Below the pieces are notes generated by a model. The model saw nothing but the letters and a program-made list of their open reading frames with translations, ran no database searches and was not told the origin of the DNA. From an uncultured bacterium (lineage in GTDB: Bacteria > Actinomycetota > Acidimicrobiia > Spongiisociales > UBA5794), in contig CAVZRA010000004.1 in assembly GCA_963777645.1 (NCBI GenBank), forward strand, positions 141,806 to 205,805: DNA of 64,000 bases, in the 5' to 3' direction. Positions within the stretch are counted from its first letter, which is position 1. Each line of letters opens with the position of its first letter. Of the stretch, positions 30,497 to 40,308 are shown piece by piece. The translations under genes and the position numbers were made by a program.

Positions 30497-30600
30497 GGGC
30501 TGATTCTGCCACCGCCAATCTGTGACTGACACGGCGAGCACTACTGCAGCGTCTTCACGGCAATCACTCCTACCTCTGGGCGTCCACCGGACGCAGCCCG

Positions 30601-30725
30601 GGCGACACCGGCCAGTACACCGGGCTGGCCAACCCGAGCGACACCCCTTTCCCGATCATCCAGGGTCACTATATCCTCGGCGAGATCGCCGAAACGGCCG
30701 CCCCTATCCGCGACCACGGCGGGAC
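30601..30725 (+). pseudogene. internal fragment of a zinc-type alcohol dehydrogenase paralogue (copy of part of 35429..36586)
   Basis: By manual alignment about 113 of 125 nt match 35589..35713. Reads GDTGQYTGLANPSDTPFPIIQGHYILGEIAETAAPIRDHGG and then runs into a stop. Weaker similarity extends back to about 30558. Confidence 0.6.
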
Positions 30726-35428: not shown

Positions 35429-36586
35429 ATGGAAGCAAGCAGCCTGGCTGCGGTGCTGACTGCACCCGGAGAGTACGAGACTCGCGAGTATCCGGTCGGG
35501 GAGCTTGCCGAGCCGGGGGAGGCAATCGTCAAGGTGCACCTCTGCGGGATCTGCGGCACCGACAAGCACACCTACCAGGGCTACACCGGCCAATACACCG
35601 GGCTGTCCAACCCGAGCGACACCCCCTTCCCGATCATCCAGGGTCACGAGATCCTCGGCGAGATCGTCGAGACGGCTGGCCCTATCCGTGACTACGGCGG
35701 GACTCTGCTGCAGCCGGGCGACCGCGTCGTGGTCGGGCCCAACCTTGTGTGTGGCTACTGCCGGGCGTGTGTCAGAGGTGGGCCGTACACGCTGTGCGAG
35801 AACATCCGCGACTACGGCAACACGATGACGTGCGACGATCCTCCACACCTGCTCGGGGGATGGTCACAGTACATGCACACCCTTCCCGGCACATACTTCT
35901 TCAAGGTGCCCGACGAGGTACCAGACGAGATCGCGGTGCTCGCCGAGGTATTCGCAGTCACCGTCGGCCTCGACCGGGCCCGCCAGATCTCGGCCGTTCC
36001 CGGCGAGTCTTTCCTATTCGGCGACTCCGTCATTGTCATCGGCTGCGGTCCACTGGGGCTGCTCCACATCGTCAAAGCGAGAATGCTTGGTGCCGGTGAC
36101 ATCATCGGCGTCGACCTCCTCCAGGGTCGCCTCGATGCGGCCATGACCCTTGGTGCCACCAAGACGGTCTGCGATCTGGACATGAGCGACGAGGATCTGG
36201 TCGGCCGGCTGCTCGAGATGACAGACGGCGGCGCTGACGTCGTCGTCGAGACCGCGGGGGTTCCGGAGGTGATCCCGCCGGTGCTCGACGTGACCCGACC
36301 CGGAGGGGTGGCTGTCATCGTTGGGAACTTCAGCGACCTCGGTCCGGTGGAGATCACCCCCAATCGGCACCTGGTCAGCAAGGGGATACGTCTCATCGGG
36401 GTCTCCGGTCAGGAGGCGCCCGGGTATCTGCCCGGCATGCGTCTCATGGCGAAGGACGCCTCCACCTCTGGGCTGAGGGACTTCGTAACCCACCGCTTCG
36501 GCATAGACGAGGTGTCGGCCGCGGTGGCCAAGTCGATGGAGGGAGACGCGGTCAAGGTCGTCATCGACCCCTGGAAGGTCGGCTGA
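35429..36586 (+). CDS. zinc-binding alcohol dehydrogenase (MDR superfamily)
   Basis: 385 aa; CGICGTDKH, GHEILGEIV, second Zn site CGYCRACVRG..C, Rossmann VIVIGCGPLG. Confidence 0.9.
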   Translation: MEASSLAAVLTAPGEYETREYPVGELAEPGEAIVKVHLCGICGTDKHTYQGYTGQYTGLSNPSDTPFPIIQGHEILGEIVETAGPIRDYGGTLLQPGDRVVVGPNLVCGYCRACVRGGPYTLCENIRDYGNTMTCDDPPHLLGGWSQYMHTLPGTYFFKVPDEVPDEIAVLAEVFAVTVGLDRARQISAVPGESFLFGDSVIVIGCGPLGLLHIVKARMLGAGDIIGVDLLQGRLDAAMTLGATKTVCDLDMSDEDLVGRLLEMTDGGADVVVETAGVPEVIPPVLDVTRPGGVAVIVGNFSDLGPVEITPNRHLVSKGIRLIGVSGQEAPGYLPGMRLMAKDASTSGLRDFVTHRFGIDEVSAAVAKSMEGDAVKVVIDPWKVG

Positions 36587-36592
36587 CTTCTA

Positions 36593-36645
36593 CCGCTTTG
36601 GCGTCGCATCGCGGAATATATTCCGGTTTGCGACGCCAGACGCGG
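36593..36645. repeat. palindromic element, copy 1 (imperfect), between the ADH stop and the DUF559 stop
   Basis: CCGCTTTGGCGTCGCATCGCGGAATATATTCCGGTTTGCGACGCCAGACGCGG; best match is the reverse complement of 37611..37662. Confidence 0.85.
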
Positions 36646-36650
36646 TTTGG

Positions 36651-37568
36651 TCAGTAGACGTCCAGGGCTTGTCGGAGCGTCCAGAGGACCACGGCGGGCT
36701 CATCCACCACCTGGCGCCAGGTGAATCGGTAGACGGTCCACCCCAGCGTATGCGCCTGGTTCTGCTTGATCCTGTCTGCCTGGAACGTCTCGCGGTCCAT
36801 GTGATACCGCTCTCCATCCAGCTCGATCAGGATCTGCCACTCCGGGTATGCGAAGTCGGCGCGGCACACAAATCGCGATCCGGTGCAGAGCTCATATTGG
36901 GGCACCGGTGGGGGGAGGTTCGACGCAGCGATCAGCCGCCGGAAGCGATCCTCGAGGGCGCTCTCTGATGCCGTGTCCCAGTGGGTTCGCTCATCCAGCA
37001 GCGGGCGGATCTTCCCGATGCCGTTGCGGCCGGGCCTGGCGACCCGCTTCACGAATGCCTTGACATCGCCGAGTTGAAAGAGCCCTAGGCGGAGCCCCGT
37101 ATCCAGACAATGCTCGACGTATCGAGACGACGCGGTGGCGCCGACATCCACCACCGTTCTCACGGCTCCGGTTGTCGGGATGCCCTCCACAGTCACGACG
37201 TCATCTGGTGCGAGGTCTTTCGACTCGTGGATCTGGGGGTGTTCACGCTGGATTCGCAGATGACGGACGGTGACTATCTCAGCGCGTTCGGGCTCGAAGG
37301 AGGACATTCCCCAGAGGAACGTCGCGGTCTTGTGTGACGCCGCCGCCAGACCCGGCACGGACAGCACTAGGGCAATGGCCTCCCTTCGCCAGCTGGCCGG
37401 TGCGCCGGGGAATGCGAAGACGGAGGGCTGGAGCCGGGCGAGCGCACCGCGGGCGACACGCTTGTCGAGCGTCGATCTGTCAATCCCGACGGCGCGGGCC
37501 TGGCTGAGGGAGAAAACGCCGTGCTGTTTCGTAGCGATATCTGCGAGCAGGTGGTCGAGGTTTGACAC
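36651..37568 (-). CDS. DUF559 (Vsr-like endonuclease fold) protein with AbiEi-like N-terminal HTH
   Basis: 305 aa, GTG start; ..QHGVFSLSQARAVGIDRSTLDKRVARGAL..; C-terminal ..ADFAYPEWQILIELDGERYH...DRIKQNQAHTLGWTVYRFTW. Confidence 0.85.
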   Translation of the reverse strand: MSNLDHLLADIATKQHGVFSLSQARAVGIDRSTLDKRVARGALARLQPSVFAFPGAPASWRREAIALVLSVPGLAAASHKTATFLWGMSSFEPERAEIVTVRHLRIQREHPQIHESKDLAPDDVVTVEGIPTTGAVRTVVDVGATASSRYVEHCLDTGLRLGLFQLGDVKAFVKRVARPGRNGIGKIRPLLDERTHWDTASESALEDRFRRLIAASNLPPPVPQYELCTGSRFVCRADFAYPEWQILIELDGERYHMDRETFQADRIKQNQAHTLGWTVYRFTWRQVVDEPAVVLWTLRQALDVY

Positions 37569-37610
37569 CTTCGAGGGTTACACAAACCACAACGTGATTC
37601 GACCCCCCTG

Positions 37611-37662
37611 CCGCTTTGGCGTCGCAAACCGGAATATATTCCGCGTTGCGACGCCAAAGCGG
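37611..37662. repeat. palindromic element, copy 2 (perfect 17-bp outer arms plus inner CGGAATATATTCCG palindrome)
   Basis: CCGCTTTGGCGTCGCAAACCGGAATATATTCCGCGTTGCGACGCCAAAGCGG, 14 nt downstream of the stop of 37676..39052. Confidence 0.85.
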
Positions 37663-37675
37663 GGTTCTTGGGTGG

Positions 37676-39052
37676 TTAGCCGCAGCCTCCGCCGCCACCG
37701 CCGGTGGCTACGACCGTGGCTGCTTCGCTGGGTAGCTGCTCGGTCCCCGGGATGGACAGGTAGGCGGGGACGGCAAGCGTTGTGCCCGTCATCCAGGCAC
37801 GAACCTCGTCCTGATATTCGGCCACGCTCGGCACAGTCGACGACGTCGTGGTTCCCTCACCACCGGCGACCGTCCACTCGGGCCACGTCGCATCGGTACC
37901 CAGGACGTCGGCCTGCCAGGCGGCATCACCCCCGTCGAGTAGCAGGGCATTGACCCCCTGGAGCCGAAGATCTGTGACGATCGTCCGCGCTGTCTCCGAT
38001 TGGTCCTTGTCGACAACCACCAGCGGCTTGTTCTTGTCGGCGGTTGTGACCAGGAGGTCGTCGAGGACCGCAAGAGCAGACTCGTACTGATCGTCACTCT
38101 GCGGCACCACAACCGTGCCCTGCATGGGGATCTCAGCCCGGACCTGCTCATCTCGAAGATCGAGGACATGGGAGTTGGGAGGGGTCTCCTCGGCGATGCG
38201 GTTTGCGTCGGCAACGATCCATCCCGCCAGGCTGAGCGCATCGATGCTGGGGACCTGTGCCTCGTCGACGGCCACCGCCGTAGGAACCTCGGATCCCACA
38301 GCGAGGATATCTGGTTCGTCTGCGCCAACCGAGAACACGGCGAGCACAATCGCCAGTGCCCCGGCCAGGCCGATGACCACCCTGGTGGAGCGGCCTGCGT
38401 GGGGTTTGGCCACGGGAGGCCGCGGCTCACCGGCGAGCTGCTCAGGGGTCCGCAAGGCGAAGCGCTGCTCGAAGATGTACAGATAGCGGAACGAGAGAAT
38501 CACTCCACCGGTGATCGCGATAGCGACGACCCAGGCGAGCGGATGACCGTTCAGGCTCTGCACGGCGGCGCCGGCGGGTGCGTAGAAGCTCTGGAACCAC
38601 GACGCCTGCCCGGCACCGTCGTAGAACAGAGCGAACCCGTAAATGCCGAGCACGATCCCGACCAGGAACACCCACGCATCCAGCCGCCCGCGCACCGCCG
38701 AGACCACCGCGGTGCCGGGACAGAACCCGCCGAAGTAGAAGCCGACACCGAATAGGAGACCACCGACGAGCATGGGCCAGAAGAAGGTCGTGCTCAGCTC
38801 GAGCAGACCGAGGTCCATCCAGCCGAATGCGCTCATCAGCTGAGCACCGATCATTGCGGTGACCAGGGCGGTGAACATGACCCGGTAGACGCCCCAGTCC
38901 CTCAGTATGAATACCGCAGTGAGTTTCTTGGCCGAGCCGAAGCCGGACCGCTCCAGGAAGAAGCCAAATGCAATACCCACCACAGCGGCCATCACCAGAT
39001 AGGTGGTGGGAGAGCCGCCGTCAAGGGGGAGTATTGGAAAGATCGTGCTCAT
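37676..39052 (-). CDS. YeeE/YedE (Sulf_transp) half-transporter fused to a rhodanese-like domain
   Basis: ATG 39052 overlaps the upstream stop (ATGA). GFFLERSGFG.., GGFCPGTA; extra TM (VVIGLAGALAIVLAVF); rhodanese-like ..HVLDLRDEQ..PLVVVDKDQSETAR..; ends GGGGGGCG. Confidence 0.85.
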   Translation of the reverse strand: MSTIFPILPLDGGSPTTYLVMAAVVGIAFGFFLERSGFGSAKKLTAVFILRDWGVYRVMFTALVTAMIGAQLMSAFGWMDLGLLELSTTFFWPMLVGGLLFGVGFYFGGFCPGTAVVSAVRGRLDAWVFLVGIVLGIYGFALFYDGAGQASWFQSFYAPAGAAVQSLNGHPLAWVVAIAITGGVILSFRYLYIFEQRFALRTPEQLAGEPRPPVAKPHAGRSTRVVIGLAGALAIVLAVFSVGADEPDILAVGSEVPTAVAVDEAQVPSIDALSLAGWIVADANRIAEETPPNSHVLDLRDEQVRAEIPMQGTVVVPQSDDQYESALAVLDDLLVTTADKNKPLVVVDKDQSETARTIVTDLRLQGVNALLLDGGDAAWQADVLGTDATWPEWTVAGGEGTTTSSTVPSVAEYQDEVRAWMTGTTLAVPAYLSIPGTEQLPSEAATVVATGGGGGGCG

Positions 39053-40308
39053 CGCCACACCTTCTTGAATGCAAAGGCAGTGCCAAATCCACCAATGAAC
39101 ACTGCCGCCAGGAACAACCAGGAACCGGCCGATAGCAGGGCCGCCTCCGAGAGATGATGCGAGGTGCAACCTCGGGCGAGTCGGGTGGCGACGCCGACCA
39201 CGATCCCGCCGGAGAGGGCGAAGAAGAGCCTGCTCCGTCGGGAGATGAGGCTGCCACGGTCGATTCCAAACTTGATCCGGCCCGCAAGCAGCGCAGAGAC
39301 GAATCCGCCGACCGCAATCCCGAGGACCGTCCACGTCAGCCAGTAGCTGCCCAGGCTCTCATTGAGGACGGTGCCCCAATATGCGTTTGACGCAACCTGC
39401 TCGGGGGCCACCTGGGCGACGGTGACTGCCCCGAGCCGCGAGAAGAATCCCGATGCTCCGGGGCCATGTCCCATCAGTGCGAACCCGGCGAGCACGCTCA
39501 GGCCGAGCCCGATCCCCGCAAGATACGGGGAGCCGAGCGGCTTCGGCTTGGCGTTGTGCACTCGCAGCACCAGACGCTTGACTGCGCCGAACACCTTGCG
39601 GGGCAGGGCGAATCGCTCTGTCGGGTGCAGCGGCTCACCCTCCTCGCCATGCTCCCGGTACCACTCAGCATGGTGGTGCTCTGCGTACTCGACGTCGACT
39701 TTGCCGGTGAGCATGCTCATCAGCGCCGGGCGCTCCTCCTTCATGAGAGCCGCCATGGCGAAGTGAACGAAGAAGAAGGCGATGACCGCACCGACGGTGA
39801 TCAGGTGGATGAGGACGAGTGATCTGCCGAAGGAACCACCACCGGATCCGAACCACATGATCAGGCCGGTCGTCCCGATGACGGTCGACCCGATGAGAAC
39901 GACGGCGCCAAAGGCCTTCTGACCCGCGTTGTATGCCCCCTGGTCCGGCATCGGCAGCGACGGGTCGAAGATCTCCGCCTTTGGCTTCACCTTGAACCAC
40001 GTGATGTCGTTTCGGGTGGGGACCAGGTCCCGCAGGAAGCGCAGCGACAGGCCGTGGGGATCGATCAGGAACGACACAGCGAGTATCCCGAACCACAACA
40101 TCCCCACATAGACGTGGGCGTGGAGCAGCCGGGTAGCACCGCCGAAGAGGCTGTTCACCGCATCGATGTAGAAGCGCGGGCCAATCTGGTAGCCGGAGTT
40201 GCTGATGATGGCGATTCCGGTCAGCCACAGGAACAGGAAGCTGGCCGCGTTGTACCAGTGCACGATGCGCTGTTGCAGCGGGTGCTTGACGAGAGCTCTC
40301 TCACTCAT
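39049..40308 (-). CDS. FdnI/PhsC-type cytochrome b fused to a YeeE/YedE (Sulf_transp) half-transporter
   Basis: N-terminal 4-TM cyt b with conserved His (IVHWYNAASF, HAHVYVG, HLITVG, HFAMAAL); C-terminal TM domain with RLARGCTSHH sulfur-transport motif. Confidence 0.85.
   Translation of the reverse strand: MSERALVKHPLQQRIVHWYNAASFLFLWLTGIAIISNSGYQIGPRFYIDAVNSLFGGATRLLHAHVYVGMLWFGILAVSFLIDPHGLSLRFLRDLVPTRNDITWFKVKPKAEIFDPSLPMPDQGAYNAGQKAFGAVVLIGSTVIGTTGLIMWFGSGGGSFGRSLVLIHLITVGAVIAFFFVHFAMAALMKEERPALMSMLTGKVDVEYAEHHHAEWYREHGEEGEPLHPTERFALPRKVFGAVKRLVLRVHNAKPKPLGSPYLAGIGLGLSVLAGFALMGHGPGASGFFSRLGAVTVAQVAPEQVASNAYWGTVLNESLGSYWLTWTVLGIAVGGFVSALLAGRIKFGIDRGSLISRRSRLFFALSGGIVVGVATRLARGCTSHHLSEAALLSAGSWLFLAAVFIGGFGTAFAFKKVWR

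Follow-up and report, generated by a model that had tools for sequence, protein, structure and literature searches.

The 64,000-nucleotide (nt) stretch analysed here (the window, from contig CAVZRA010000004.1 of an uncultured member of the Acidimicrobiia) carries, at positions 36593-37662, a gene for a nuclease-like protein of 305 amino acids (aa) lying between two copies of a palindromic hairpin. It is proposed that these positions form one hairpin-gene-hairpin unit, here called a cassette, and that the protein recognises its own cognate palindromes of about 50 nt, the same type being also present as solo copies; the probability given to this reading is roughly 0.55. The link of the nuclease gene family to its flanking palindromes is strong and specific. 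The inner 26 nt of paired hairpins have a mean identity of 0.88 within loci, as compared with 0.40 between loci, and for all 32 hairpins tested the best match is the partner at the same locus.

The genome from which the window comes (G000) was compared with the other members of a 15-genome genus set (G001-G014). Its assembly comprises 4.0 Mb in 13 contigs (62% GC, 89% complete, 4013 predicted genes), its protein look-alikes belong to the Actinomycetota, and the metagenome runs containing the locus come from salt marsh and sediment. The features of the locus, in window coordinates, are the following:

35429..36586, plus strand: Zn-dependent alcohol dehydrogenase (ADH) gene, the left neighbour (Pfam ADH_N, ADH_zinc_N), converging on the nuclease gene
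36593..36645, no strand: hairpin copy 1 (type A); 3x3 internal loop, outer right arm decayed (64 bits with model R1)
36651..37568, minus strand: nuclease gene, 305 aa, with an AbiEi-like module (residues ~1-200) and a Vsr-like/DUF559 domain (~205-305)
37569..37610, minus strand: spacer of 42 nt from the 5' hairpin to the GTG start, in which a promoter or leader is presumed
37611..37662, no strand: hairpin copy 2 (type A); both 17-nt outer arms perfect (74 bits with model R1)
37676..39334, minus strand: sulfur-transporter (YeeE-like) gene, the right neighbour (Pfam Sulf_transp), on the same strand as the nuclease gene

Both copies were found where a first-pass annotation of the window had placed them, around a single gene, and 36651-37568 is the sole open reading frame (ORF) between them. 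Copy 1 lies 6 nt past the ADH stop and 5 nt past the stop of the nuclease gene, while copy 2 lies 42 nt upstream of the nuclease gene start and 13 nt past the stop of the transporter gene; the gaps to the two neighbouring stops agree within 1 nt with those given earlier. The perfect outer arms of copy 2 were confirmed, and these exactly complementary 17-nt stretches enclose CGGAATATATTCCG. The outer-arm pattern occurs three times in the window as compared with 0.34 expected, a count reached in 0 of 100 shuffles. Single-strand folding gave -22 kcal/mol (z -6.3) for copy 1 and -28.8 kcal/mol (z -7.7) for copy 2, the range over both copies being -22 to -29 kcal/mol with z from -6.3 to -9.2. The two copies had been described as inverted, and they do match better in the inverted register (45/46) than in the direct one (43/49); however, this preference depends on just two neighbouring asymmetric positions of an otherwise near-perfect palindrome and says little about orientation.

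An assembly artefact is ruled out, since the ADH-hairpin-nuclease junction is spanned by contigs from four metagenomes of independent origin (salt marsh, sediment and soil). Copy 2 is marked in the metagenome contigs by a spike in depth and by numerous loose ends, as a dispersed repeat would give. The search of the spacer and locus for the sigma-70 promoter consensus gave no match. In runs X1 and X2, a contig tracks the nuclease gene to its start codon and, at window position 37566, continues into unrelated sequence (CAGCCGTCCGG...), so that a variant with a different upstream region is present in the community.

The protein between the hairpins

Within the 305-aa protein, Pfam recognises AbiEi_4, a winged helix-turn-helix, at residues 8-54 and DUF559/MTES_1575 at residues 237-302, DUF559 scoring above cut-off. 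A sequence search of the PDB with the whole protein gave no match. An AlphaFold model made with a 47-sequence alignment reached a pLDDT of 93, as compared with only 39 for the single-sequence model. When searched with Foldseek, residues ~1-200 matched the whole AbiEi antitoxin 6Y8Q (E 2.6e-6, ~205 aligned columns), and the last ~100 residues matched the catalytic domain of I-Bth0305I (3R3P; prob 1.0, TM 0.69-0.78) and also 3HRL, the DUF559 protein NGO0050. The protein is, as modelled, a whole AbiEi-type DNA-binding protein to which a Vsr-like nuclease domain, similar to those of homing endonucleases, is fused, and the earlier naming of an AbiEi helix-turn-helix plus a DUF559 domain of Vsr fold is borne out by these searches.

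All 28 homolog ORFs examined are intact and keep the motifs RxDFAYP, IELDxE, H, DRxKQN and GWT; in the homolog alignment D238, E249 and D265 are invariant and H256 is nearly so. The ratio of nonsynonymous to synonymous substitution (dN/dS) is 0.13 against the G008 ortholog and 0.12-0.31 overall. These reading frames and rates show that the protein is intact and under purifying selection. In a salt-marsh contig of run X1, a patch of ~90 nt in the nuclease domain (window 36831-36921) carries 39 differences and four small indels, and it looks like a mosaic or a conversion tract from a paralog or another strain.

A second, shorter kind of DUF559 gene is present in the genome. The short canonical gene at G000:C1:42261-42581 (L138:1435-1872; ~145 aa, 103 bits to PF04480) was considered as a partner of the type C hairpins and rejected, as it has no model match, no R1-family hairpin, and adjoins a different repeat. 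Beside it, at L138:1864-2600, four to five tandem repeats of 166-177 nt carry the palindromes CGTCCTCCCTCGAGGGAGGACG and ACCCTCCCAGCGGGAGGGT together with tracts rich in purines. G001, G003 and G014 have similar short DUF559 genes.

Pairing with palindromes and the history of the cassette

It was shown that genes of the nuclease family are bracketed by hairpins as a rule, in this genome, in the genus and in the class, and not by happenstance. The only paralog in G000 (C10:121009-121909; 46% and 39% identity over its two pieces, apparently frameshifted) has a type-B hairpin on either side, so that both family genes of G000 are bracketed, versus ~8 gene intervals with a family hairpin at both ends among 4013 genes (~0.2%). 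In the genus, 14 of ~22 evaluable homolog loci are flanked on both sides and several more on one, as scored with model R1, a structural scan and a model-free palindrome detector. A type-A-trained nhmmer profile misses the type-B hairpins and, used alone, shows hairpins at the orthologous group only. The geometry of the bracket is constant across the genus: the 5' hairpin ends 37-68 nt before the start codon (38-40 nt in three orthologs under a 60-nt model), and the 3' hairpin either touches the last codons or overlaps them. The arms GCGTAACTGGCGGC are retained in four syntenic orthologs despite saturated synonymous sites. In the class, homologs occur in 106 of 201 genomes (1-8 copies each), and at least 7 of 29 loci in other genera and families have clear cognate pairs, with quite different, lineage-specific palindrome sequences.

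The first-pass annotation had allowed that a genome-wide REP-like element simply happens to flank the gene. The element did prove to be genome-wide and REP-like, and its ~37 copies and ~8 bracketed gene intervals in G000 speak for coincidence with a common intergenic repeat; nevertheless, the flanking is a family-wide rule. If chance alone placed the repeat on both sides of the nuclease gene, it would have to have done so for both family genes of a genome in which ~0.2% of genes are so placed, and again at most evaluable genus loci and in other families. This explanation is barely credible.

Homology between cassette copies in different contexts was shown, in pairwise alignment, to start and stop at the outer edges of the hairpins. 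G009 matches the type-B cassette of G000 exactly from hairpin edge to hairpin edge, in a different genomic context. The loci of this type-B lineage (G000:C10:120972-122001, L003:1465-2510; G010:C5, L031; G009:C256, L023) are syntenic or orthologous, and their hairpin arms resemble type B in G000 and subtypes C1 and C2 in G010, those of G009 being a B/C hybrid. G010:C12 was tried as an empty site for the type-B cassette and set aside, since a different 228-aa ORF there spoils the comparison. In G008, the ortholog of the window's gene (71% aa identity) and its two hairpins have a rhodopsin gene on one side and an epimerase gene on the other, and the blast alignment of G000 and G008 continues through the spacer and the hairpin. 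In G012, rhodopsin and epimerase genes are adjacent, separated by an ordinary GC-rich terminator with no family hairpin, which gives one clean empty site; the edges of the G008/G012 indel are not placeable to the base because the intergenic DNA has diverged. Another paralog cassette adjoins tRNA-Leu(taa) in a variable region. There the tRNA gene (L022:2437-2522, G006:C90; G000:C5:359247-359330) stands 10 nt from the 3' hairpin, and the stretch from it to the conserved left flank measures between ~1 and 5 kb, depending on the genus member.

At the window's own locus, the order of nuclease gene, hairpin and transporter gene is kept in G014 (96% nt identity) and G010 (84%), and copy 2 is conserved at the same place in the G014, G010 and G008 orthologs. 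The G014 copy of the nuclease gene has one in-frame TGA. The G010 ortholog is in three pieces; of the two hairpins only the 5' one is kept, and the gene facing its 3' end is a convergent cytochrome c gene. Behind the transporter orthologs of G004 and G013 there is neither a nuclease gene nor a hairpin. The ADH orthologs are all located elsewhere: those of G008 and G009 lack a hairpin, and that of G001 is trailed, 4 nt past its stop and ahead of ftsH, by a hairpin of its own that shares with copy 1 the position of an odd G-G mismatch. By these arrangements copy 2 belongs to the nuclease gene and has travelled with it. Copy 1 is either the cassette's own 3' copy or a solo copy of the ADH gene, the ADH side having come to the cassette through a rearrangement at the hairpin or beside it. 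More generally, hairpins coincide with synteny breaks and contig ends; the G014 contig CAWJPT010000003.1 (216 kb) ends at 215646, exactly at the nuclease gene 3' end that corresponds to the site of copy 1 in G000.

An older proposal for this locus, made in the first-pass annotation, starts from one ancestral hairpin that acted as a bidirectional terminator where the ADH and transporter genes converged; the nuclease gene would then have homed into this hairpin and duplicated it. The resemblance of the nuclease domain to a homing endonuclease speaks for this proposal, as does the G001 ADH hairpin, owing to which copy 1 could be a pre-existing hairpin of the ADH gene. Hairpins of the family also favour convergent junctions (14 of 31 classified sites, as compared with a 20% background). 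However, ADH and transporter genes were not adjacent in any relative searched, and the hairpins are not canonical terminators: no T-tract was found beside them, no terminator-like site in 36500-37750, and the stems have T before and A after, the opposite of the intrinsic terminator order. The predicted empty site with one hairpin did not appear either, as the G012 site and the transporter orthologs of G004 and G013 all lack it, and the G010 gene with its lone 5' hairpin ends at a quite different neighbour. Since the G012 site is empty and free of family hairpins, homing into a pre-existing hairpin is refuted for the G008/G012 site by the test which that annotation had itself set. Taken as a whole, the terminator proposal is improbable. 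What stands of the selfish, homing-like behaviour suggested together with it is the tie of the gene family to palindromes and the homing-endonuclease-like domain; entry into a hairpin already in place does not.

Hairpins dispersed apart from the gene

The palindrome is a genus-wide, REP-like dispersed hairpin family. The search of the genome and its relatives that had been suggested as a check was carried out, and besides the bracketing described above it gave ~37 loci in G000 and, with covariance model R1, members in 15/15 genus genomes, two-strand matches ranging from 91 down to 1. In G000, nhmmer with copy 2 as the query finds ~21 loci; a structural census finds 35 (37 when three from the nhmmer list are included), which fall into three subtypes: type A, that of the window, with 17 copies, type B with 9 and type C with ~11. 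The subtypes have in common a 38-nt core of the form GGCGTY-N26-RACGCC. Rfam gave no match to the hairpin.

In an alignment of 29 copies, the 24-bp stem shows 54 double-sided changes versus 34 +/- 4.5 in shuffles, and 81% of cells are paired versus 35-49% in slid registers. The outer arms (T-Y-T-G-G-C-G-T / A-C-G-C-C-A-R-A) are conserved in sequence, and the inner stem varies with compensation. By this covariation the stem was shown to be maintained through compensatory change. Most copies lie close behind genes, 23 of the 26 evaluable ones in G000 being within 18 nt of a gene 3' end. A fixed polarity of each copy relative to the gene that it trails was considered and dropped, as three of the copies with asymmetric positions agree with it and two disagree.

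The entry of solo copies can be followed at two junctions. The junction of GyrI_b and ABC2 is empty in G010, holds an exact 50-nt type-A insert in G000, and has a type-B-like hairpin in G014. The insert is a single palindrome whose edges are ambiguous by at most 2 nt (GG), a clear target-site duplication was not seen, and no transposase was found associated with it or with the hairpins. Between GyrI_a and GyrI_b, the distance from the stop to the next ATG is 0-3 nt in eight genomes, and in G000, G014 and G010 the junction is occupied by a hairpin with a short tail that bears AAGGAG. From such comparisons it was shown that solo hairpins entered pre-existing gene junctions as precise units of ~50 nt. 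The insert between GyrI_a and GyrI_b (L069:2417-2487, G000:C4; L070, L071) ends with AAAGGAGCAACG before the downstream ATG and would therefore supply or preserve the ribosome-binding site of the second gene. Hairpin pairs as general marks of mobile cassettes were considered and rejected, since the GyrI-like tandem is ancestral and the hairpins were added later; cysK/methyltransferase/cysE was likewise rejected as a mobile cassette, as G010 has the same arrangement without hairpins.

Could the hairpins be elements of the REP type, or of the miniature inverted-repeat transposable element (MITE) type, that are moved by another enzyme or by host recombination, the nuclease gene being a passenger or a guardian where they accumulate? 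That solo abundance does not track the integrity of the gene speaks for this explanation. Ordinary genes are bracketed too, and the copies cluster locally, with 9 neighbour pairs within 3 kb in G000 versus 0.9 expected (0 of 5000 permutations reach 9). However, no Y1 HUH/RAYT transposase (PF01797) was found in the 89%-complete G000 assembly, in a search where control genomes gave matches. Moreover, each paralog has its own palindrome type, the best match is the locus partner in 32 of 32 cases, and the same is seen in other families with unrelated palindrome sequences, because of which an unconnected gene and repeat are hard to accept. An independent mobilising enzyme thus seems a poor candidate.

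A further explanation makes the 5' palindrome an operator through which an AbiEi-like gene regulates itself, and lets the 3' copy end the transcript; the solo copies would be deletion scars comparable to solo long terminal repeats, and the nuclease would act elsewhere. It draws on the finding that AbiEi proteins bind inverted repeats at their own promoters, upstream of their own genes (PMC7319586), on the fixed 37-68 nt between the 5' hairpin and the start codon, and on the fact that a deletion between two direct copies leaves one hairpin, the same end product as a 50-nt insert. On the other hand, it needs dozens of past cassette insertions per genome, when 1-5 cassettes are present, and no site was found where one genome has the cassette and a relative a solo hairpin. 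It also does not explain why same-subtype pairs stand around ancestral ordinary genes such as the GyrI tandem, nor why solo palindromes of types B and C are more perfect (18.4 and 18.9 of 19 pairs, respectively) than the cassette copies (15-17). We consider this combination of operator and scars unlikely.

Proposed activity and known counterparts

Under the proposal that the protein recognises its cognate palindromes, the AbiEi module would bind the hairpin, probably at the conserved outer arms, by analogy with the binding of inverted repeats by AbiEi. Binding at the 5' copy would regulate the protein's own gene. The Vsr-like nuclease domain may cut at or near the palindrome, and repair or copying from another copy would then keep the two flanking hairpins alike; the same process might occasionally seed a solo hairpin at a new site and, more rarely, a whole cassette. 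A bolder version, to be regarded as tentative, is that the AbiEi-Vsr-like nuclease makes and spreads its own palindromes, as a second, independent partnership of the REP/RAYT type that is widespread in the Actinomycetota. A possible clue to the mechanism is given by the type-B cassette lineage, in which the two arms of the imperfect flanking hairpins match different near-perfect solo subtypes. It looks as if solo copies were made from one arm plus its own complement, and fold-back or template switching after a nick could be the way in which this occurs.

Several observations weigh against the recognition of cognate palindromes as proposed here. The abundance of solo copies does not track the integrity of the cognate gene: type A accounts for 17 of the 20 best-scoring copies fetched from G010, yet the type-A gene of that genome is broken, while its intact paralogs have few detectable solo copies. 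The type-B gene of G000 apparently carries a frameshift, and for type C that 89%-complete assembly contains no matching gene. G011 has bracketed genes and almost no R1 matches elsewhere, and G003 (66% complete) has hairpins and no homolog of the nuclease gene that could be found. By the detectors applied, about five genus loci and about half of the class loci lack a palindrome. Same-subtype hairpin pairs in G000 also bracket ordinary genes, namely those for a SAM methyltransferase (between cysK and cysE), a GyrI-like protein, a Kelch protein, a MaoC dehydratase, an EamA transporter and an aldo-keto reductase. A paralog type whose 3' flank is syntenic across seven genomes is stably inherited and long resident, with no visible mobility. 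No excision or inversion joints were seen in the metagenome contigs, which drop rare variants. Finally, the recognition of the palindrome by the protein is something that we infer.

The closest layout is that of the REP/REPIN-RAYT systems (REPtrons) of Proteobacteria, in which the gene of the enzyme is flanked by a short palindromic repeat that is also scattered extragenically (PMC3116915, PMC3337134). In both cases the gene is flanked on both sides, the repeat type is scattered, mostly behind genes, different paralogs pair with different repeat types, and at least one paralog type has been passed down at a constant position throughout the genus. As regards the dependence of repeat abundance on a cognate gene, types A and B do have genes in G000, and G010, G011 and G003 show a mismatch. 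The differences are considerable. The enzyme considered here is an AbiEi binder with a Vsr-like PD-(D/E)xK nuclease and not a Y1 HUH transposase, the repeat is one long hairpin of ~50 nt and not a REP doublet, there are 1-8 gene copies per genome, a conserved GTAG-type end was not seen, and the activity is presumptive. The system is not a member of the REP-RAYT group, since the defining Y1 transposase is absent.

The nuclease part can be compared with I-Bth0305I, an EDxHD (Vsr-like) homing endonuclease (PMC3239194). The C-terminal ~100 residues are predicted to have the same catalytic-domain fold, and, like other selfish nuclease genes, those of this family are small, patchily distributed and sometimes decayed. 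Unlike the genes of EDxHD homing endonucleases, the window's gene is free-standing and intergenic, outside any intron or intein, encodes an AbiEi-like N-terminal module and has a palindrome at each end; the putative target is absent from the G012 site, the only clean empty one. The N-terminal part, in turn, corresponds to AbiEi, the antitoxin of the type IV AbiE toxin-antitoxin systems (PMC3985639, PMC7319586), both in the predicted match of residues ~1-200 to the whole of 6Y8Q and in the palindrome at a fixed distance upstream of the gene. In contrast to AbiE, no AbiEii (DUF1814) toxin gene is adjacent, the neighbours being ADH and Sulf_transp, and a nuclease domain is fused instead; the palindrome is also repeated at the 3' end and genome-wide.

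In a survey of programmed inversions, the annotation 'DUF559 domain-containing protein' was 14-fold enriched among genes lying between inverted repeats (PMC9881135). The entry is a table row given without explanation, and no repeat family, cognate pairing or solo copies are described. Flanking palindromes would explain the enrichment of DUF559 among predicted inversion targets. No published description of a palindrome-bounded nuclease gene was found, this table row being the only relevant item among the papers found to mention DUF559.

Proteins that combine AbiEi_4 and DUF559 are among the commoner unexplained proteins of the Actinomycetota. If the protein acts on its flanking palindromes, then a large family of unknown function gains an immediately testable substrate, and the REP-like repeats of an uncultured salt-marsh actinobacterial lineage gain a candidate enzyme. 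It would also mean that the layout of a gene between its own repeats, so far known only for RAYT transposases, arose a second time with different catalytic chemistry, and the flagging of DUF559 in programmed-inversion surveys would be accounted for.

Some observations concern the neighbouring genes. The right neighbour had been called a YeeE-rhodanese gene; Sulf_transp was found at residues 129-332 of its product, so the transporter part of the name holds, but rhodanese gave no hit and DUF6691 stayed below cut-off (E up to 0.001). A bacteriorhodopsin-like gene (L018:509-1321 in G008; L048, L049, L050) occurs in G008, G011, G012 and G001, and tblastn found none in G000. About 5 kb upstream of the ADH gene, a 129-nt stretch (window 30597-30725; G000:C4:172402-172530) is 90% identical to bases 147-275 of that gene and represents a paralog or a gene fragment.

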